DNA from: Heterodontus francisci
Lineage: Eukaryota
Assembly: GCF_036365525.1 (NCBI RefSeq)
Contig: NC_090376.1
Location: forward strand, 19,834,311-19,898,310
Reading direction: 5' to 3'
Length of the DNA: 64,000 nucleotides
Below are positions 3,232 through 62,243 of this stretch, in pieces (position 1 is the first letter of the stretch; each line of letters starts with the position of its first letter). The notes below the pieces were generated by a model. That model had not been told where the DNA came from, did no database searches, and saw only the letters and a program-made list of their open reading frames with translations. The position numbers were made by a program, and so were the translations under genes.

Positions 3232-3470
3232 CCCCCATGTCCGTGGCTGAGTCAATAATTTTGTCAAATGATCATGATGTAACATGTTGATGCCTATCCC
3301 TGAGCCTTACCCGCTTATGTTCTCACCCAGCATCTATGCATGCATGCTCTCCAGCAGGAGTCAGTAGGCAGAAAACAGGAGAGGGAACTCAGTTATTTTC
3401 ACCCTTCCTAAACCTTGGGCACATAGACCAATTGTAACTGTCAAGCCAAGATCTTGGGTTCTTTGTCATT

Positions 3471-5239
3471 CATCTTTGGCCTCCTTGTCTCGAGAGACAA
3501 TGGGTAAGCGTCTGGAGGTGGTCAGTGGCTTGTGAAACAGTGCCTGGAGTGGCTATAAAGGCCAATTCTAGAGTGACAGACTCTTCCACAGGCGCTGCAG
3601 ATAAAATTGGTTGTCGGGACTGTTACACAGTTGGCTCTCCCCTTGCACTTCTGTCTTTTTTCCTGCCAACTGCTAAGTCTCTTCGACTCGCCACTCTTTA
3701 GCCCCGCCTTTATGGCTGTCTGCCAGCTCTGGCGATCACTGGCAACTGACTCCCATGACTTGCGGTCAATGTCACAGGACTTCATGTCGCATTTGCAGAC
3801 GTCTTTAAAGGGGTGACATGGACGGCTGGTGGGTCTGATACCAGTGACGAGCTCGCTGTACAATGTGTCTTTGGGGATCCTGCCATCTTCCATGCAGCTC
3901 ACATGGCCAAGCCACCTCAAGTGCCGCTGGCTCAGTAGGGCGTATATAGTGGGGATGTTGGCCGCCTCGAGGACTTCTGTGTTGGAGATACGGTCCTGCC
4001 ACCTGATGCCAAGGATTCTCCAGAGGCAGCGAAGATGGAATGAATTGAGACGTCGCTCTTGACTGACATACGTTGTCCAGGCCTCACTGTCGTAGAGCAA
4101 GGTACTGAGGACACAGGCTTGATACACTCGGACATTTGTGTTCCGTGTCAGTGCGCCATTTTTCCACACTCTCTTGGCCAGCAGTGGACGCCTTTCTCAT
4201 GCGCTTGTTGATTTCTGCATCGAGAAACAGGTTACTGGTGATAGTTGAGCCTAGGTAGGTGAACTCTTGAACCACTTCCAGAGCTTGGCCGCCGATATTG
4301 ACGGATGGAGCATTTCTGACGTCCTGTCCCATGATGTTCAATTTTTTCAGACTGATGGTTAGGCCAAATTCGCTGCAGGCAGCCGCAATCCTGTCCATGA
4401 GTCTCTGCAGACACTCTTCAGTGTGAGATGTTAATGCAGCATCATCAGCAAAGAGGAGGGTTCCCTGATGAGGACCTTCCGTGCTTTGCTCTTTGCTCTT
4501 AGACGGGCAAGGTTGAACAACCTGCCATCTGATCTTGTGTGGAGGAAAGTTCCTTCTTCTGAAGACTTGAACGCATGTGAGAGCAGCAGGGAGAAGAAGA
4601 TCCCAAACAGTGTAGGTGCGAGAACACAGTCCTGTTTCACGCCACTCAGGATAGGAAAGGGGTCTGATGAGGCGCCGCTATGCTGAATTGTGCCTTTCAT
4701 ATTGTCATGGAATGAGGTGATGATACTTAGTTGCTTTGGTGGACATCCGATCTTTGCTAGTAGTCTGAAGAGACCACGTCTGCTGACGAGGTCAAAGGCT
4801 TTGGTGAGATCTATGTAAGCAACGTAGAGGGGCATCTGTTGTTCGCGGCATTTCTCCTGTAGCTGGTGAAGGGAGAACAGCATGTTAATGGTGGATCTCT
4901 CGGCTCGAAAGCCACACTGTGCCTCAGGGTTGACACGCCCAGCCAGCTTCTGGAGTCTGTTTAAAACAACTCGAGTGAAGACTTTCCCCACTGTGCTGAG
5001 TAGGGAGTATCCACGGTAGTTGTTGCAGTCACCCTTGTTCTTATAGAGGGTGATGATATTGGCATAACGCATGTCCTGGGGTACTGCTCCCTCATCCTAG
5101 CACAGGCAAGGCAGTTCATGGAGTGCTGAGAGTATAGCAGGCTTGGCACTCTTGATTATTTCAGGGGTAATGCCGTCCTTTCCAGGGGCCTTTCCACTGG
5201 CTAGAGAATCAATGGCATTACTGAGTTCCGATTTTGTTG
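3471..5239 (-). mobile_element. RTE-clade LINE, 5'-truncated, frameshifted RT
   Basis: ORFs 4431-5072, 4084-4398 and 3522-4169 encode RT pieces (NYRGYSLLS, DLTKAFD, LRWLGHV) and a C-terminal C2H2; flanking repeat ttgtcatt (3463-3470, 5237-5244). Confidence 0.93.
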
Positions 5240-21940: not shown

Positions 21941-23502
21941 AGTAACCTTTGATGTGGCACCTTATCAAATGCCTTTTGGAAATCCAAGTACACATCTACA
22001 GGTTCCCCTTTATCCACCCTGCTTATTACTTCCTCAAAGAATTCTAATAAATTAGTTAAACACGATTTCCCTTTCACAAAATCATGTTGACTCTGTCTGA
22101 TCCCATTATGATTTTCTAAGTATCCTGACATAACTTCCTTAATAATGGATTCTAGTAATTTCCCTATGACAGGTGTTAGGTTAACTGGCCTAATGTTTCC
22201 TGCTTTCTGTCTCCCTCCTTTCTTGAACAAAGGTGTTACATTTGTATTTTCCAATTCACTGGAACCCTTCCAGAATCTAAGGAATTTTGGAAAATTATAA
22301 TCAAAGCCTCTACTATCTCTGCAGCCACTTCTTTTACCAGCCTAGGATGCAGGTCATCTGGTCATGGGGACTTGTCAGTCTTAAGTCTAATAGTTTTCCC
22401 AGCACCTTTTTCCTGGTGATGCTGATTGTTCTAAGTTCCTACCACCCTTTCACCTCTTGTTTTTCAAGTATCTTTGACAGGTTTTCTAAGTCTTCTACAG
22501 TGAAAATAGACACAAAATACCTGCTCAACACATCCACCATTTCCTTGTTTTCCATTATCAATTCCCTAGACTCCCTCTCTAGAGGACCAACACTAGCTTT
22601 AGTTATTCTTTTCCTATTTAAATACTTGTAGAAATTTTTATTATCTATTTTTATATTACTAGCTAGCTCTCATATTCTACTTTCTCCCTCTTAATTATTA
22701 TTGTTGAATAGGAGGGGAAGGTAGAATGGTAATTAGTGGGTTACATTACTTGGTTAAGGGAGCAACTAGATCTTGTCAACCAGTCATGAGCATTATAGTC
22801 AGGATATTGTCAGGGTCTATAGCCTTTGTTGTGTCCAGTACCCTCACCCACTTCTTAATGTTACTTGGAGTGAACCGAGTTAGCTGGACACTATCATTCG
22901 TGATGGTGATGGTTCTGGGAGGAGTCCTAATGGAATTGTCCATTCCATACTTTTTCATCTCTTGCACTCAAATGGTTGAGGATGGGAATGTTCATCAAGC
23001 CTCCTCCTGCTAATTGCCTTATTGTCCACCAGCATTCTAGACTGAATGAGCTGACAAGTGATCGGTAATGTTTGTTTTGTCTTTTGACTTGGACATGGAT
23101 ACCAATCCAAGGTACAACTCCCTATGCGAGTCCATTCCGATGTGCCTTGTGCTTAGCTTTCAAGACACCAGTAAAATGCAGCATGGTGTTAGATAATGTG
23201 GTGAACAGAGGTGAGCTCTCAGGCAATCAAAGGAGGCAGCTAGTACTGGAACCACATAGTGGCAACTGAATTATCTCATGGCAGAATGGGACACTTAGGT
23301 ACACCAATACTTTCCTACAAAGGGGGAAAGAAATCATCAGCAGATGGTGGACACTAAATTATTGCCACATAGGCCTTCTTCTATTTGAAGAGCACTTGAG
23401 TTGAGTCCAAAGGGCCTAGATTTGAAGTCCTCCTTAAAAGAGTATTCTATCATAGTCTTGAAATATTGTGATATTCTGCAACCACAATGCTATCAAAATT
23501 GA

Positions 23503-26500
23503 GGCCTCAATCCAACCTCAATCCGACCTCTGTCGTCCTTCCGCCGTCACTGCTGGGAGCCGGGAAAAAACTTCTACCGTCAGCTGGATGGCGACCACGA
23601 GCGCAGCGTCAGCCTGGAGAACGCCGATATCGAGGACGCCGTGCAGGCTGTGGGCTGGCCCGCTCGCCAGGGTCACGAACCCCGCCGGAGGCCTCCCCCC
23701 TTCCCCCTTCACACCACCTTTCCCCAGCACCCCCTTCCCAGCTCACCCCCACAACCTCCCCCCCACCCCGCATGGAGAGTAAAAGGCATTAAAAGCCCCC
23801 GCCCCTCAAAATTCTTGGTGCAGCGAGTGAGGGGTAGACCTGGCAGGATCGATTTCATCCCAAAAATCCTTCGAAGAAAATATCGTAAATAAACCACGGT
23901 CGTAATTAGACCGGCAAAATTTTGTGTTGAGATTGAAACTACACAAGGCAACCCCAACTTTACAGGGGGACTGCATTGTGTGGGAGCTGATGAAATGATT
24001 TATTACCTGCAACCCCTTCCCCCACCCCCTCCCCCTCTCCACACCCCCTTCCTAGACCCCCTCCCCCTCTCCACACCCCCTTCTCAGCTCCCCCCTCACG
24101 CATCCCCTCCGAGCTCACCCCCCTCGCACCCCCTTCCCCCCATCCCCCTCGCACCCCCTTCCCCCTCGCACCCCCTTCCCAGCTCCCCCCTCGCACCCCC
24201 TTCCCAGCTCCCCCCTCGCACCCCCTTCCCCTGCACCCCCTCCTCCTCTCACCATCTTTCCCTTGCACCCCCTTCCCCTGCACCCCCTCCCCTACCCCCC
24301 TCACAACCCCTTCCCTCCACCCGCACCCATCCCCCTCCCACCCCCTCCCTCCGGCATCCACCTATCCCTGAGCAGGGGCCCTAACAACCCCACTGCCTTG
24401 TGGGCGTCTCTGGAGAGTCCAAGGCTAAGGGAGTAAACCCTAACAGAAAATCCGGAGCGGAACCCCGTAGGCGGTCATGTGTCACCTTTGGCATGTTTCC
24501 AGCAGTTCCTGCAGCCATACCGGTGCCAAACGTCGTGCTCTGCACTCCTTTGGACCCCACCAGGAAGGCCGAGAGGGGGGTTTTGACGCTTGGGCAACTC
24601 ACAACCTCCATACATCCGCCCAGGCATGCGTCATGGAGAGGTCACTTCATAGTTGCCTCACAGCGACCAAAACAACACGGAAGGCAGCAGTTAGGGGTTA
24701 TACGTCCAGCTCAATTGGCGTAGAGATTGGGCACCACGGATTGCCTTTGTCAGTGGGAGAGGTCATCACATCTCACTGGACAGCTACCGCCCGCTTTAAA
24801 CCGGGCAGCCCCCGGTCAGTAAGGTTCTGTCCCGCCACAGTCCACCTGCTTCAATGGGTGCTTGGAGCTCAGGGTCATTGCCCGACAAGTGGACTGTAAC
24901 ACTGCACCAAACAGCACGACAAAAAATGGAAAGAAGGTACCAGCTCTTCGTTTTGCAAGCTAGAACGTCAGAACAATGTGTCCTGGCCTGTCGGAAGACC
25001 TTACACAAATCAACGATTCTCGGAAGACCGCCATCATTAACAACGAGCTCAGTGGACTCAACGTGGACATTGCAGCACTTCAGGAGACATGCCTCCTTGC
25101 GAGCAGATCTCTAAGAGAGCAGGACTACGCCTTCTACTGGCAGGGTAGGGATCCTGAAGAACCAAGACAGCATGGAGTGGGCTTCACCATCAGAAACTCC
25201 TTGCTCAGCATGATAGAGCCACCTTCAAATGGCTCGGAACGCATACTGTCCATCCGACTGCTCACCGTCTCTGGTCCAGTACACCTACTCAGCATCTATG
25301 CTCCAACACTCTGCCCCCCACCTGAAGTTAAAGACCAGTTCCACGAGGAACTCCATTAGTAGCATCCTCAATACCGACCATCTATTCCTGCTGGGGGACT
25401 TTAATGCCAAGGTTGGGGCCGGCCATGACTCATGGCCCTCCTGCCTTGGGCGCTATGGCATTGGAAGGATGAATGAGAATGGACAGAGACTGCTTGAGTT
25501 GTGTACCTATCACAACCTCTGCATCACCAACTCGTTCTTTCACACTAAACCCTGTCACCAGGTTTCTTGGAGGCACCCAAGATCACGTCGCTGGCACCAG
25601 CTGGACCTCATCGTCACAAGGCGAGCCTCTTTAACAGCGTTCAAATCACACACAGCTTCCACAGTGCGGACTGCAACACCGACCACTCCCTGGTGTGCAG
25701 CAAGGTTAGCCTCAAACCAAAGAAGCTGCATCACTCCAAGCAGAAGGGCCGCCTGCGCATCAACACTAGCAGAAGTTCTTACCCACGGCTGTTACATATG
25801 TTTCTAAATTCACTTGAAAAAGCCCTTCAAAACACTCCCACAGGGGATGCAGAGACCAAGTGGGCCCACATCAGAGACGCCATCTATGACTCAGCAATGA
25901 CCACCTATGGCAAACATGTGAAGCAGAATGCAGACTGGTTTCAATCTCACTTTGAAGAGCTGGAACCTGTCATAGCCGCTAAGCGCATTGCACTGTTGAA
26001 CTACAAGAAAGCCCCCAGTGAGTTAACATCCGTAGCATTTAAAGCAGCCAGAAGCGCTGCACAAAGAACAGCCAGGTGGTGCGCAAATGACTACTAGCAA
26101 CACCTATGCAGTCATATTCAGCTGGCCTCCGACACTGGAAACATCAGAGGAATGTATGATGGCATTAAGAGAGCTTTTGGGCCAACCATCAGGAAGATCG
26201 CCCCCCTCAAGTCTAAATCAGGGGACACAATCACTGACCAACACAAGAAAATGTACTGCTGGGTGGAGCACTACCTAGAACTGTACTCCAGGGAAAATAT
26301 TGTCACTGAGACCGCCCTCAATGCAGTCCAGTCTCTGCCAGTCATGGATGAGCTGGACGAACAGCCAACAAAATCGGAACTCAGTGATGCCAATGATTCT
26401 CTAGCCAGTGGAAAAGCCCCTGGGAAGGACGGCATTACCCCTGAAATAATCAAGAGTGCCAACCCTGCTATACTTACAGCACTCTACGAACTGCTTTGCC

Positions 26501-28130
26501 TGTGCTGGGATGAGGGAGCAGTACCACAGGACATGCGCGAAGCCAACATCATCACCCTGTATAAGAACAAGGGTGACCAAGGTGATTGCAACAACTACCG
26601 TGGAATCTCCCTGCTCAGCACAGTGGGGAAAGTCTTCGCTCGAGTCGCTTTAAACAGGCTCCAGAAGCTGGCTGAGCATGTCTACCCTGAGGCACAGTGT
26701 GGATTTTGAGCAGGGAGATCCACCATTGACATGCTGTTCTCCCTTCGCCAGCTACAGCTACAAACAACAGATGCCCTCTACATTGCCTTCATAGATCTCA
26801 CCAAAGCCTTTGACCTTGTCTCTTCAGACTACTAGCAAAGATCGGATGTCCACCAAAGCTACTAAGTATCATCACCTCATTCCATGACAATATGAAAGGC
26901 ACAATTCAGCATAGCGGCGCCTCATCAGACCCCTTTCCTATCCTGAGTGGCGTGAAACAGGGCTGTGTTCTCGCACCTACACTGTTTGGGATCTTCTTCT
27001 CCCTGCTGCTCTCACATGCGTTCAAGTCTTCAGAAGAAGGAATTTTCCTCCACACAAGATCAGATGGCAGGTTGTTCAACCTTGCCTGTCTAAGAGCAAA
27101 GACCAAAGTGCGGAAAGTCTTCATCAGGGAACTCCTCTTTGCTGAAGATGCTGCATTAACATCTCACACTGAAGAGTGCCTGCAGAGACTCATCGACAGG
27201 ACTGCGGCTGCCTGCAACAAATTTGGCCTAACCATCAGCCTCAAGAAAACGCACAGCATGGGACAGGAGGTCAGAAATGCTCCATCCATCAATATCGGCG
27301 ACCACGCTCTGGAAGTGGTTCAAGAGTTCACCTACCTAGGCTCCACTATCACCAGTAACCTGTCTCTCGATGCAGAAATCAACAAGCGCATGGGGAAGGC
27401 GTCCGCTGCTATGTCCAGACTGGCCAAGAGAGTGTGGGAAAATGGCGCACTGACACGGAACACAAAAGTCCGAGTGTATCAAGCCTGTGTCCTCAGTACC
27501 TTGCTCTACGGCAGCGAGGCCTGGATAACGTATGTCAGCCAAGAGCGACGTCTCAATTCATTCCATCTTCGTTGCCTCCGGTGAATCCTTGGCATCAGGT
27601 GGCAGGACCGTATCTCCAACACAGAAGTCCTCGAGGCGGCCAACATCCCCAGCATATACACCCTACTGAGTCAGCGGCAGTTGAGATGGCTTGGCCATGT
27701 GAGCTGCATGGAAGATGGCAGGATCCCCAAGGACACATTGTACAGCGAGCCCGTCACTGGTATCAGACCCACCGGCCGTCCATGTCTCCGCTTTAAAGAC
27801 GTCTGCAAACGCGACATGAAGTTCTGTGACATTGATCACAAGTCGTGGGAGTCAGTTGCCAGTGATCGCCAGAGCTGGCGGGCAGCCAAACAGTGGCTAA
27901 AGTGTGGCGGGTCGAAGAGACTCAGCAGTTGGCAGGAGAAAAGACAGAAGCACAAGGGGAGAGCCAACTGTGTAACAGCCCCGACAACCAATTTTATCTG
28001 CAGCACCTGTGAAAGAGTCTGTCACTCTCGAATTGGCCTTTATAGCCACTCCAGGCGCTGCTTCACAAAATACTGACCACCTCCAGGCGCTTACCCATTG
28101 TCACTCGAGACAAGGAGGCCTAAGAAGAAG
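23503..28130 (+). mobile_element. RTE-clade LINE, near full length (5'UTR from about 24370, degenerate APE-RT ORF), carrying about 870 bp of foreign 5' sequence
   Basis: 19-bp TSD acaatgctatcaaaattga (23484-23502, 28131-28149); endonuclease motifs DIAALQET, IYAPT, LLGDFNAKVG; RT; (gaa)n tail; several stops and frameshifts. Confidence 0.92.
24012..24360. repeat. C-rich degenerate tandem repeat (cacccccttcccc/agctcccccctcg units)
   Basis: Directly visible; minus strand is rich in G-runs. Confidence 0.85.
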
Positions 28131-28907
28131 ACAATGCTATCAAAATTGATCGGAGCTGGAGAGAGACAGAAACAGCCATGTTCATTACCTAGTCCATTAG
28201 GAATTATTCACAGATAGCTAGTGTATCACGACTGACATATGATACAACACTGGTAATAGATGACAGGTTGCTCCAGAAGCAACAAATGTTTGCGTAATGC
28301 AAAGCATTATGTCCCAAAGTAGCTGCCAGTTGCCAACATACATACCCATCTATGCACCAAGTTAAATCCAAGATCAGACGGTTCAGTGGGCTTCCTTCCC
28401 CGAACAATAATTTGTGAAGTTGAGCCTGAAATGGATTACTAGGAGTACCCATGTGAATTTCGCTCCTCAGTCTCCTCACAATCGCTCCCAAGGTGGTTAA
28501 TTGCCAGCTGACTGGGCTGGGACTGCTAACTGAAGCTAATACAAGAGAGAGATGAGACAGCTTAACGAAGTTCATGTGAGCTGTCAAAAAGTATGTTGAT
28601 GACAAATATATAATATTTTTCCATCAAAAAAATCTACATACGGCACAAGTCAAGTTTCATAGCAAAACTATTTGCATAACACAATCTGGTTTGTTTTTTT
28701 CCCTCAATGGCAGTAATTCTAGCAGAAACATTTCATGCCCACTCATATCTACTGATACTGATTCAAGTGGATTTTCCCAGGTCAGCTAATTTAAATATCT
28801 TTGGACAATCTGGGGGATTCCCATCTGCACCAGGGGGTCTCTCCTTTTGAGAGAGTGGGCAAGGAGGCTAGCAAGAACATCACTGCTGCAGGCCACAAGA
28901 GCAGGAT

Positions 28908-49500: not shown

Positions 49501-52500
49501 CCTCTTCTTTTGGGCCTCCTTATCTCGAGAGACAATGGATACGCGCCTGGAGGTGGTCAGTGGTTTGTGAAGCAGCGCCTGGAGTGGCTAGAAAGGCCAA
49601 TTCTGGAGTAACAGGCTCTTCCACAGGTGCTGCAGAGAAATTTGTTTGTTGGGGCTGTTGCACAGTTGGCTCTCCCCTTGCGCCTCTGTCTTTTTTCCTG
49701 CCAACTACTAAGTCTCTTCGACTCGCCACAATTTAGCCCTGTCTTTATGGCTGCCCGCCAGCTCTGGCGAATGCTGGCAACTGACTCCCACGACTTGTGA
49801 TCAATGTCACACGATTTCATGTCGCGTTTGCAGACGTCTTTATAGCGGAGACATGGACGGCCGGTGGGTCTGATACCAGTGGCGAGCTCGCTGTACAATG
49901 TGTCTTTGGGGATCCTGCCATCTTCCATGCGGCTCACATGGCCAAGCCATCTCAAGCGCCGCTGACTCAGTAGTGTGTATAAGCTGGGGATGTTGGCCGC
50001 TTCAAGGACTTCTGTGTTGGAGATATAGTCCTGCCACCTGATGCCAAGTATTCTCCGAAGGCAGCGAAGATGGAATGAATTGAGACGTCGCTCTTGGCTG
50101 GCATACGTTGTCCAGGCCTCGCTGCCGTAGAGCAAGGTACTGAGGACACAGGCCTGATACACTCGGACTTTTGTGTTCCGTGTCAGTGCGCCATTTTCCC
50201 ACACTCTCTTGGCCAGTCTGAACATAGCAGTGGAAGCCTTACCCATGCGCTTGTTGATTTCTGCATCTAGAGACAGGTTACTGGTGATAGTTGAGCCTAG
50301 GTAGGTGAACTCTTGAACCACTTCCAGAGCGTGGTCGCCAATATTGATGGATGGAGCATTTCTGACATCCTGCCCCATGATGTTCGTTTTCTTGAGGCTG
50401 ATGGTTAGGCCAAATTCATTGCAGGCAGACGCAAACCTGTCGATGAGACTCTGCAGGCATTCTTCAGTGTGAGATGTTAAAGCAGCATCGTCAGCAAAGA
50501 GGAGTTCTCTGATGAGGACTTTCCGTACTTTGGACTTCGCTCTTAGACGGGCAAGGTTGAACAACCTGCCCCCTGATCTTGTGTGGAGGAAAATTCCTTC
50601 TTCAGAGGATTTGAACGCATGTGAAAGCAGCAGGGAGAAGAAAATCCCAAGAAGTGTGGGTGCGAGAACACAGCCCTGTTTCACACCACTCAGGATAGGA
50701 AAGGGGTCTGATGAGGAGCCACCATGTTGAATTGTGCCTTTCATATTGTCATGGAATGAGGTGATGATACTTAGTAGCTTTGGTGGACATCCGATCTTTT
50801 CTAGTAGTCTGAAGAGACCACGTCTGCTGACGAGGTCAAAGGCTTTGGTGAGATCAATGAAAGCAATGTAGAGGGGCATCTGCTGTTCGCGGCATTTCTC
50901 CTGTATCTGACGAAGGGAGAACAGCATGTCAATAGTCGATCTCTCTGCACGAAAGCCACACTGTGCCTCAGGGTAGACGCGCTCGGCCAGCTTCTGGAGC
51001 CTGTTCAGAGCGACTCGAGCAAAGACTTTCCCCACTATGCTGAGCAGGGAGATTCCACGGTAGTTGTTGCAGTCACCGCGGTCACCTTTGTTTTTATAGA
51101 GGGTGATGATGTTGGCATCGCGCATGTCCTGGGGTACTGCTCCCTCGTCCCAGCACAGGCATAGCATAATTGTAGCTTGTTTTAACAATTATTTCTTAGA
51201 AATAAAAGTTCTAATTGTTATGAAGACAGCAACAAAGCATTCACACCTCAAAAGGCCATTGGGACCCAAGCTAGGTACTAACATACCATAGGTCTTAGCT
51301 GACAGTTCAGTTATACACCTCGCCTGAATGAAATCAATGGAAAAGACAGCTGCTATTTCACTATTGCCCATCTTGTGCTGCTGCCCAAGTCCATTTCATC
51401 ACCCACCACCCTACCCCCACTCCCCACATGGTTTCTGTGCCAGGCCCTCAACAACCATACAATAACTAGCAAAGAGGAAACGCAGCTTTGAATATCAACT
51501 TTCACTTTATGGACTTTGTTTTACAAAAATAGCACATATTTTATAACAATTTTTTTTTTGCAAAAGCCCATTGTTGAGACAGCTGTGGCTCCACTTGTCC
51601 CATACCTATTTACATTCCTAAACTAATTTTTTTTTTTTAAATGCAGTCTCAATGTAACAACCTTTCCTCACCCGGGTAATTTTATTTTCCATTAATCTAG
51701 ATTGTGGGATCGTTCAACCAAAGGGTTGCTCGCCAGGTTGTTGACACTTTGTTGACAAATGATAACCAAATCATAAAAGCTGCCACAAAATGGATATACT
51801 TTGAATGCAAATCTAACAACTCTATCCTTCTCCTGAAGGTTTAAATATAGTTTCCTGGACAGCAAGCATCCAACCAGTCATTATTTACTCTTGCGCCTGT
51901 TTGTAGTAGGTTGTCAGAATGCAGGACAAGTCTCTCCCAATGTCCACACTCACACAGTTCCAGCAGGGTTCACTTGATAAGAATCAGGAGTGGAAACCCT
52001 TGCCAATCTTTCCTCCCTCTATGATGGATGCTGAGATCAATGGAAACATACAGACCATACCTACCCCTTGGATGAGATCAGCTAATTGAGCACACCTTCC
52101 TTTCACTTTGAAGTTTTTTTAAATCTTGTTTCCTTTAGATTGCTCTTCACTGCTTACCCAAGATGGCAGAAATGCTGTGCAAAAATGGGTTCTGATGAAA
52201 GGTCACAGACCTGAAACATTAACTCTGTTTCTGTCTCCACAGATGCTACCTGACCTGCTATGCATTTCCAGCACTTTCTGTTTTCATTGGCAGAAATGCA
52301 ACCTGGCGCCCAGACCTCTGCCAATTCTGCAGCATATCAACTGCTGGGGAAGGTACAAGAGAACTGCAGGTTAACACAAATTACTGTTTTCCTTCTTTTA
52401 TGTTCTAAGGAAAGTGACTCACTTCTGCTGAACAGACTGAGCAAAGTTTTCCACTCATATGCTTGCACCCCACCCCACGCCACACCCACCTCCAATTTAT

Positions 52501-59900: not shown

Positions 59901-62243
59901 GATTGGTTTCTCCTCTTTTAATAATAAGGAATGCTAACTCAGCAGGCTCTTCATTTGCCCTTGAGCATCTTCTAACAGGCTGTAATGTGTGCTGTATAGT
60001 TGCTCTGACCACCTCCAGGCGCGTATCCATTGTCTCTCGAGATAAGGAGGCCCAAAAGAAAAGAAAAAGAAAGAATAGTTGCTCTGTACCTTGAGATTAT
60101 ATTCACCTGGTGTCTCAATTCTTTCCTTCCTTTCTTCACAAGGTGAACTTCAGATGGCTGAAGCAGTTGCTCTAGTGAACACCCTGCCCAACTGGCATGT
60201 TGTTGATAAGATTATTCTTTCTACGAAAAGTCCAGACAACAAATTCATTTTTGGCAAGGGCAATTTTGAGACCCTTACAGGTAACTCAACTGACTTTTTA
60301 ATGACAAAATGTTGAAGCAGAATCTAGAGGACACTAAATTATATATCTTAAAAGGTATAATTTAAAATGGTGATCTGCAAGTATTTGTACCTTAATGTGA
60401 TATTTTCCAGTAGTGAAGAATTTTTTCTTTAAATGTCTTATCTCACCATATTAGAGTGCATTCAAAGAAAAATCAGGAAAAATCTATTTTTATGACGTCA
60501 CTGTAGTTTCATCACACAGAACTTACAAAGATATATTGGAACACTGTGGGCTGTTGGTACAGTTAAGCCTATTTAGAAAATTATGTCCTGTTAGTGATCA
60601 AGTTATTTTGGCAATGCTTTGTTAGAGTAAAAAAAAGTAATACCTTTCACAACCTCACTATGTCCCAAAGTACGTTACAGAAAATTAAGTGTTTTTGAAG
60701 TATAGTCATTGTTGTAATTTAAATATTACTGTTTTGCAGACAAATTAAAAGGGCTGCCACGGGTTACTGCAGTATTTATGAATGTTGAGCGACTGTCTGC
60801 ATTATCAGAGGTAAAGAAGTTTCACCCGAGCAAAGTATATGATGTGAAGTAATAATTAATCACAGTGTACTGTATAATACATAATAATTGATAGCAAGGA
60901 GTGGGGCAATATTTTCATCAGGTGATTAAATTGCAAACTAGAGGAGTGAAGCTCGTATAGTTCATACAGTGTCCTGGAATGGCAGAGATTAGAAAGCTGC
61001 TTTAAGCCACTATTTGGTGTCTGATAGTTTGTAATTTTCTGCACAGTTTTGGTAGTATTATTCTACCAGGAGGGGCTGTAAGAATAGATGTCAAGAGTTG
61101 ATGAGCTGCATGTTTCAGATGCATGGTGCTCATGCAAAAGTATTAATGCACATAATATTATTACTCAAGTCTATGAAAAAAAATTGTGATTAGTGGTGCA
61201 GTCTGGTATGATACTGAGTCATACAGATGAGATTGTCCTAAGTTTGACCTCAATTCTGTGCTAACATAGCTGATCACAGCCCTGGACATAATCGTGATGC
61301 CATAGCTGGACTTAAAGTTAGTGTTTCTGTGTCTGATCATTATCCAGCAGTCTCTGGTCAATGAAAAGTGCAGGTTTGTGGCCATCAGATGAGGACATGA
61401 TCAGGCTTAGTTGTGACGCCCCCAACCCCCCAAGCCCAAATAGCCTGACGTCAATCTGACTGGCTGGGCTTACACATTTGGGCAAGGTACTGAAGGTCAG
61501 CCGAAGGAACAATATACCAGAATTACTTGGTGCCTTTAGGAGAAAATTTGAGGAAAACAAAAAAAGGAAAATATGTTTATTTAAAGAAATAATGTAAAAC
61601 TGATTAAATTCTGAGCATAAATGCTACCATGCAGCATTCATTTCAATATTTTGGAGCAAGGCAGCAGTCTAATAAACTATAGAACTATGTATATTTTTAG
61701 AAACTTTGTGCTGCTGCAAGAATTTTTGGACATCCAGCAGCATTTAGATTAATTTGTACTGGCATTATTCTACTTATCTTTGTGCTGTGAGAAGCCATGG
61801 CTTAGATTTTATGAACACGGTGCAAATTAAAAATGGATTATAAAACCATTCAGGAGAAAAATAAAAATTGAAGTGTTAGATTTTTTTTTTCAAACTAGAG
61901 GTTTATGAGAAGTTTAGACTTTCTTCAAAGAGCTTTCATTTGCCAATATTCTTGGTTTCAAAAGTGTTCACACCATTCTTTGTCCCAGTGTTGGAGAATC
62001 ATACAGCACAGATAGAGCCATTTGGCCCATTGTGCCTGTTTAACATTTTATTGTGTTGACTATACTCTGTGTAAAAGGGAAAGAAGTAAAATATTTCCTT
62101 TGACCCTGTTAGAAAGAGTTGGAATCTGCCTGGGGAGTTAAAGTGTTGGACAGGTACTCAGTCGTCCTTCATATTTTCCGTTGCAATGCTCGGACTAAAG
62201 AGGCCAAACTGCAGATAGCACTCGCTGAGATCCCATACCTGAG
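56478..62243 (+). CDS. GTPBP6: GTP-binding protein 6 (mitochondrial HflX-family GTPase), first four coding exons; gene runs beyond the window
   Basis: join(56478-56931, 60143-60280, 60740-60810, 62113-62243), GT-AG introns, phases 1,1,0,2. Peptides VHPDVKWG, AEAVALVNTL, FIFGKGNFETLT and KELESAWGVKVLDRYSVVLHIFRCNARTKEAKLQIALAEIPYLR match the GTPBP6/HflX N-terminal domain as recalled. Confidence 0.93.
57796..58773 (+). mobile_element. Solo LTR (Gypsy/ERV-like) in GTPBP6 intron 1, inserted in an old CR1 remnant
   Basis: TGTTA...TAACA termini; 4-bp TSD cacc (57792-57795, 58774-58777); ATTAAA near 58662. Confidence 0.72.
59050..59445 (+). mobile_element. Old CR1 3' fragment
   Basis: Degenerate similarity to 21530-21930. 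Confidence 0.6.
59690..59890. mobile_element. Head-to-head inverted pair of Penelope-derived short elements
   Basis: 59697-59789 (minus) abuts 59790-59888 (plus) of the same family, giving a long imperfect inverted repeat. Confidence 0.7.
60008..60074 (+). mobile_element. Ultra-short RTE 3'-end insertion
   Basis: accacctccaggcgcgtatccattgtctctcgagataaggaggcccaaaagaa matches the reverse complement of 49505-49557; 12-bp TSD atagttgctctg (59996-60007, 60075-60086). Confidence 0.9.
60143..60280 (+). CDS. GTPBP6: GTPBP6 coding exon 2
   Basis: Pyrimidine tract then AAG|; ELQMAEAVALVNTLPNWHVVDKIILSTKSPDNKFIFGKGNFETLT; donor G|GTAACT. Confidence 0.92.
60740..60810 (+). CDS. GTPBP6: GTPBP6 coding exon 3
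   Basis: ttttgcag| DKLKGLPRVTAVFMNVERLSALSE |GTAAAG. Confidence 0.9.
62113..62243 (+). CDS. GTPBP6: GTPBP6 coding exon 4
   Basis: cctgttag| KELESAWGVKVLDRYSVVLHIFRCNARTKEAKLQIALAEIPYLR |GTAAGG. Confidence 0.92.

Follow-up and report, generated by a model that had tools for sequence, protein, structure and literature searches.

A horn shark LINE lineage with an inherited 5′ leader that contains a piece of ARHGEF2 mRNA and, probably, spliced host first exons

The window copy and its leader

The window, by which we mean the whole 64,000-nucleotide stretch analysed (G000:C6:19834311-19898310, Heterodontus francisci), contains a LINE on its plus strand that is enclosed by a perfect 19-bp target-site duplication (TSD) at 23484-23502 and 28131-28149 (both plus strand). 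A preliminary description of this DNA had pointed to the TSD, to a reading frame starting at 23503 and to a double occurrence of cctcaatcc at the 5′ junction, and all three are as it described. The same holds for the retroelement between the TSDs (Pfam RVT_1, E 4.4e-11; the Exo_endo_phos match is weak, E 0.0087). We tentatively place this element in the RTE clade, the name used in the preliminary description and one that agrees with the general character of the clade; its traits are present here, namely an AP endonuclease (EN; weak match) and a reverse transcriptase (RT) in one frame, a short repeat tail and a TSD.

All the components of this copy lie on the plus strand. Immediately after the left TSD comes a 5′ truncation scar (23503-23515), consisting of 11 leader bases and AA, after which the leader restarts and so forms a short tandem duplication. 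It is followed by two pieces of the host gene ARHGEF2: the 3′ part of exon 2 (23516-23606; host G000:C46:9610183-9610093, minus strand) and, precisely joined to it, the 5′ part of exon 3 (23607-23693; host C46:9609798-9609703). A first C-rich tract (23694-23769), a module F that is confined to one subfamily (23770-23979), a 34-bp motif also found in the sister subfamilies X (BCL2) and Z (23980-24013) and a C-rich, VNTR-like tract of variable length (24014-24360) complete the leader. The core 5′ region of the LINE (24361-24900) matches the best 39 other copies of 1965 candidates at 96-98%. The EN-RT coding region (24900-28076, start approximate) has stops and frameshifts in the window copy, and the short 3′ end with its GAA-type tail (28077-28130) is like that of other copies. 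Three more copies in the window, at 3469-5239 and 49504-51166 (minus strand) and at 60005-60060, are 5′-truncated and leaderless.

The preliminary description saw about 870 bp of CpG-rich, foreign sequence upstream of the element. This sequence does lie inside the TSDs, but it is a family leader common to many copies, and only about 180 bp of it derive from ARHGEF2. The CpG richness applies to 23516-23693 (observed/expected 1.01, versus 0.12 in the 5′ flank) but not to 23694-23769 or 23980-24013 (both 0). The flank and junction (23300-23525) are covered with zero differences by a DNA contig from the public run X1, which may stem from the assembly's own sample. When 23503-23700 was used as a query, the best 39 other matches of 622 candidates had identities of 88-92%, and all 19 of the other loci that were fetched also contain at least 100 bp of the element core. 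Since recurrence in many copies is what the preliminary description had itself set against its reading of a one-off 5′ transduction private to the window copy or a small group, that reading is rejected.

The upstream ends of the leader are staggered, as they are in 5′-truncated LINEs, and the longest copies of one group share a single start about 440 bp before 23516. Other copies thus extend further 5′, and the window copy is truncated inside the leader; the repeat at the scar (23503-23515) is absent from them, their leader being uninterrupted there with about 440 bp more 5′ sequence. Clear TSDs enclosing leader and element were found in five of 17 long loci (L125, L127, L132, L183, L184), the remaining 12 giving none, and in one of five further long loci (L409), hence in 6/22 combined. 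The majority sequence of 25 loci has an open frame of 859 aa with one break left in it, which suggests that the masters of the lineage were protein-coding. Leader-bearing forms probably make up the smaller part of the family, because summed contig depth, which is not a copy number, is much greater over the core than over the leader. A public sequence index, which detects only near-identical DNA, returned the leader from a single organism (4 rows, 1 study) and listed no RNA sample with it, and Rfam gave no RNA family in it.

Several copies are rearranged. Frequent 5′ inversions that reach far into the leader and resemble twin priming occur in L006, L007, L011, L019, L023, L032, L039 and others. 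One leader-bearing copy has been multiplied with its flanks by segmental or tandem duplication (L253, L261-L268, on C28, C42 and small contigs), and some of the copies in our counts are such segmental duplicates.

Host-derived pieces in the leader

The preliminary description placed the donor among the Lbc-family RhoGEFs and recommended a BLAST-type check of the peptide. That class proved correct: the donor is ARHGEF2 (GEF-H1), the window peptide being 78% identical (42/54) to the horn shark ARHGEF2-like protein P0003, while the peptide of another copy matched this one protein only, at 87%. A search of a representative protein set with the window peptide gave two weak matches that we treated as chance. 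AKAP13 was rejected as the donor, the best PDB match being ARHGEF2 (163.8 bits, versus 136.3 for AKAP13). The host ARHGEF2 gene lies on C46, and its first three exons are 100% identical to P0003.

An exon-exon junction had been suspected within the segment and is indeed there: exons 2 and 3 are joined and the 294-bp GT-AG intron between them is gone. This spliced join occurs in 45 of 47 distinct loci (50 minus three duplicates) and the unspliced form in none. The ARHGEF2 piece is of RNA origin. In the window copy, 156 of the 178 aligned bases of 23516-23693 agree with the spliced host sequence, and the exon 3 part has a 9-bp deletion of a tandem repeat relative to the host. The piece stops in the middle of exon 3, at a point not followed by GT in the host, and gives way to C-rich element DNA. 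This C-rich DNA had been taken for donor intron, but the host ARHGEF2 intron is G-rich and the unspliced form is, as just noted, absent. Nor was the expected source RTE found directly downstream in the donor gene, element copies being absent from C46:9570001-9680000 (110 kb round the captured exons; the later exons fall outside this range). No selection on the captured frame was seen: 15 of 46 copies have a stop or a frameshift, pN/pS is 1.11, and the frame decays neutrally in the copies.

A search with the sequence of exon 2 upstream of the captured part (best 40 of 89 candidates) revealed a group of copies in which the ARHGEF2 piece is 34 bp longer, and in which three front ends recur. In the parent form, a pyrimidine tract and CAG stand immediately before the ARHGEF2 piece (12/14 matches, three of them duplicates on C22); a second CAG, without a pyrimidine tract, lies 29 bases downstream of the first, inside the ARHGEF2 piece. 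The second front end is exon 1 of TUBGCP4, identified by a peptide match to GCP4 in PDB (E 4e-10). The host exon, on C35, ends CAG|GTAAG, and the join is exact in all 21 copies tested (23 matches, minus the host and one inverted half). The third is exon 1 of a gene on C18 that we take to be MON2-like from a sub-cut-off Pfam DCB match (E 3e-4); this exon ends GAG|GTGAG in the host and is exactly joined in 4/5 copies. Both exons land on one and the same pyrimidine-tract CAG, with just 2-3 shared bases.

The larger group has a QSOX gene on C32 as its donor and contains the 3′ half of that gene's exon 1. The exon end, whose boundary is supported by RNA-type contigs and by the genomic exon 2, is joined to the second CAG in 33 of 36 QSOX-type copies, and intron read-through occurs in 0/36. 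The start of the QSOX intron resembles the leader (AGGTG, then eight more bases 2 nt away); an interpretation of the join as 12 bases of intron read-through was considered and was overturned by the older subfamily and by the 0/36 count. RNA-type contigs (a type that was guessed) cover parts of the host QSOX and ARHGEF2 genes, and among the matches listed none bridges the QSOX-ARHGEF2 join, a result that is neutral as evidence. No leader-bearing source copy was present in the whole QSOX intron 1, in the 40 kb after TUBGCP4 exon 1 or in about 59 kb after MON2-like exon 1; the donor regions read around the host first exons hold only 5′-truncated, leaderless copies of the element. The ARHGEF2 piece itself does not end at an exon-1 donor.

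In three copies of the window's subfamily (L400, L401, L403), a different module takes the place of QSOX. Its last 43 bp match a locus on C1 (G000:C1:99206919-99206961; L402) that ends AAG|GTAAGT, the join having two extra bases, and the rest of the module is absent from the 30 kb upstream of the C1 locus. This module is possibly a fourth splice capture.

The subfamilies can be placed in a rough order. The MON2 group (4 copies) retains 9 bp of host sequence that the other groups miss. Four more substitutions relative to the host are common to the QSOX group (33 copies) and to group F, that of the window copy (17). The order is not strictly linear, since at one site group F agrees with the host and the older groups do not. 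Copies deviate by about 4-5% from their group majority at non-CpG sites, and a tree of a 620-bp core did not separate the leader types D, F and Z.

The leaders contain further modules. Upstream of QSOX there are about 110 bp that match one C27 locus, with 11 differences in 117 bases; the QSOX form opens with 180 bp that match the 5′ end of another repeat family, the closest copy of which is on C8 (9 differences in 180); the element is absent at both donor sites. A copy of this donor repeat (L117) has, by eye, motifs of an L2/CR1-type LINE, with no Pfam or protein match. In L185 (G000:C3:146619001-146628500), the boundary between the first two modules of a leader-bearing copy is the exact insertion point of a truncated element copy, and other copies also begin near this boundary. 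Module F was found only within the element (39/39 loci examined, from the best 40 each of 51 and 225 candidates) and has no significant Pfam or Rfam match. Module Z precedes the shared 34-bp motif in either orientation, each orientation marking a subfamily of its own (246 candidates; L370-L399). Genome searches found no donor for either module F or module Z.

Copies close to the window copy in their core carry other leader types as well (core search, 1965 candidates). In sister subfamily X (L188, L218-L247), 200 bp of BCL2 coding sequence are present in antisense in 30 of 30 loci (827 candidates), at 88-89% identity to the host segment on C2 (G000:C2:70329756-70329955). In X, the BCL2 piece follows the 5′ end of the repeat family that also opens the QSOX form, but in another variant: blastn of one X copy against the first variant, that of L023, gave no match. 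The cores of X and of the ARHGEF2 lineage differ at about 9 of 620 sites. Six of the 30 X loci have an extra 230-bp insert, CR1-like by eye. The 3′ join of ARHGEF2 and the joins of the antisense BCL2, C27 and repeat-derived pieces are not splice joins.

Routes of capture

We consider it likely that the segment is the inherited front of a LINE subfamily, built on a piece of ARHGEF2 mRNA to which host first exons were probably added by splicing into acceptors within the leader, each addition probably founding a subfamily. The ancestor would have gained the spliced ARHGEF2 exons 2-3 either by a template switch of the reverse transcriptase from the C-rich tract onto ARHGEF2 mRNA or from an insertion in ARHGEF2 exon 3 that was short-lived and gave read-through transcripts. 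A further module, as preserved in the parent form, set the pyrimidine tract and its CAG ahead of the ARHGEF2 piece, the second CAG being available 29 bases downstream. Exon 1 of TUBGCP4 and of the MON2-like gene became joined to the first site and exon 1 of a QSOX gene to the second, probably by splicing, the likely sources being intronic element copies that were never fixed. The QSOX form then acquired the C27-matching piece of about 110 bp and the first 180 bp of the other repeat family. The window copy belongs to a late subfamily that has module F, and it was truncated inside the ARHGEF2 piece. The idea, already put forward in the preliminary description, that a source element was transcribed from a host promoter fits the TUBGCP4, MON2-like and QSOX steps; for ARHGEF2 it is one of two routes. 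Promoter activity would come from the GC-rich 5′ ends that were captured, and such a gain may drive the spread of the leader-bearing forms.

Splicing in cis needs sources that have since been lost, because no leader-bearing source copy was found in the regions examined. If no intronic source is postulated, the exon-1 joins could come from trans-splicing of host pre-mRNAs with element RNA, which would account for joins that are exact at splice sites together with introns that, where examined, have no source copy; we nevertheless hold this to be very unlikely, since lost polymorphic sources suffice, an explanation accepted for SVA transductions (PMC12593883). A broader alternative dispenses with splicing of element RNA altogether and has all the modules arise by template switching of the reverse transcriptase between element RNA and host RNAs, the joins at exon ends being a coincidence or the product of microhomology. 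The mid-exon ARHGEF2 join, the antisense BCL2, the empty donor loci and the few bases in common at the repeat/C27 and QSOX joins can all be understood in this way, and the 5′ inversions of several copies indicate an enzyme prone to jumping. The QSOX join in particular also fits a template switch, given that the second acceptor lacks a pyrimidine tract and that the QSOX intron start resembles the leader. However, the TUBGCP4 and MON2-like exons both end exactly at GT and meet the same pyrimidine-tract CAG with only those 2-3 bases in common, and as an account of all the modules template switching seems to us unlikely.

The spliced sequence and the mid-exon join of ARHGEF2 would also be expected, with the gene itself unharmed, if a processed retrocopy had come first and the element had inserted into it and been transcribed through it. 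Yet no free retrocopy was seen: the residues downstream of the captured part match the gene only (2 matches of 12 candidates), and among the best 40 of 89 candidates for upstream exon 2 the gene alone matches beyond base 144; this route is in our view a highly improbable one. As for the single-copy scenario of the preliminary description, in which an exon and intron were carried along by a source element lying within an intron of a RhoGEF gene, the TSD does enclose the segment and the donor is a RhoGEF gene; but many copies share the segment, others are longer, the intron is absent and the examined region has no source, so that its probability is now practically nil.

Returning to splicing into the leader as the preferred reading, we suggest, tentatively, that the arrangement of modules reflects a self-renewing exon trap in a coding LINE lineage. 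Captures would bring in new acceptors and promoter sequence. The 5′ end would be exchanged for CpG-island first exons of the host (MON2-like, TUBGCP4, QSOX) and, on two independent occasions, for the front of another LINE family, and turnover would be quicker in the leaders than in the coding core.

Comparison with known systems

The nearest parallels are found in primate SVA elements. As described in PMC6139936 and PMC12593883, SVA_F1 (MAST2 exon 1) and pt_SVA_D6 (STK40 exon 1) are subfamilies that began with the splicing of a GC-rich host first exon into a cryptic acceptor; more 5′ pieces are added in front, the sources may be lost, and for pt_SVA_D6 of the chimpanzee the acceptor is suggested to come from an earlier capture. 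The shark element resembles SVA_F1 and pt_SVA_D6 in its exon-1 capture at an acceptor, its stacked 5′ pieces and its VNTR-like tract. Exon-1-donor ends, an AG acceptor in the parent and expansion with its own TSDs are all present, whereas a source in intron 1 is absent from the regions examined. SVAs, which are built of hexamer, Alu-like, VNTR and SINE-R parts, are non-autonomous and moved by L1, whereas the shark element has a full EN-RT LINE body and no Alu or SINE-R part; moreover its leader, in contrast to those of SVA_F1 and pt_SVA_D6, has trapped three genes at two sites, one of which lies inside an earlier captured mRNA piece. Membership of the SVA family is ruled out, the element encoding EN-RT. 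First-exon trapping is known for primate SVAs, and by analogy it appears to work in the shark as in SVA_F1/MAST2 but in a long protein-coding LINE. The same signature occurs three times in this coding LINE, whose parental, intermediate and derived forms all survive, and it may offer a natural series for how LINEs replace their promoters, by splicing versus template switching.

Template-switch chimeras and 5′ end replacement are familiar from L1, where a host RNA or the 5′ end of another element is fused before the LINE; replacement turns promoters over between subfamilies, and the chimeras are mostly single dead copies. The shark leader likewise has host RNA fused ahead of a LINE, but its fragments of coding genes have multiplied within nested subfamilies. 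Retroelements that combine spliced pieces from several genes are known among LTR elements, maize Bs1 being one; Bs1 resembles our element in holding fragments of several spliced host mRNAs, but it is an LTR element with internal cargo whereas the shark element is non-LTR with cargo at its 5′ end. Host-derived 5′ heads moved by RTE machinery are also a feature of the platypus snoRTE (named in PMC5381603) and of RTE-derived SINEs, but these are short and non-coding, and no Rfam RNA family was found in the shark leader. Within a limited literature coverage, mostly without subscription papers, we found no report of such exon capture in RTE elements or in sharks, and no paper to cite for L1 template switching or 5′ end replacement.

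The element has left many nearly identical fragments of host genes across the genome, from ARHGEF2, QSOX, TUBGCP4 and the MON2-like gene and, in antisense, from BCL2; these could mislead annotation or give rise to putative regulatory RNAs. In two copies (L203, L211) the leader is a patchwork of short pieces, among them a BCL2-like stretch in sense orientation and a piece of the ARHGEF2-derived leader, which is inverted in L211.
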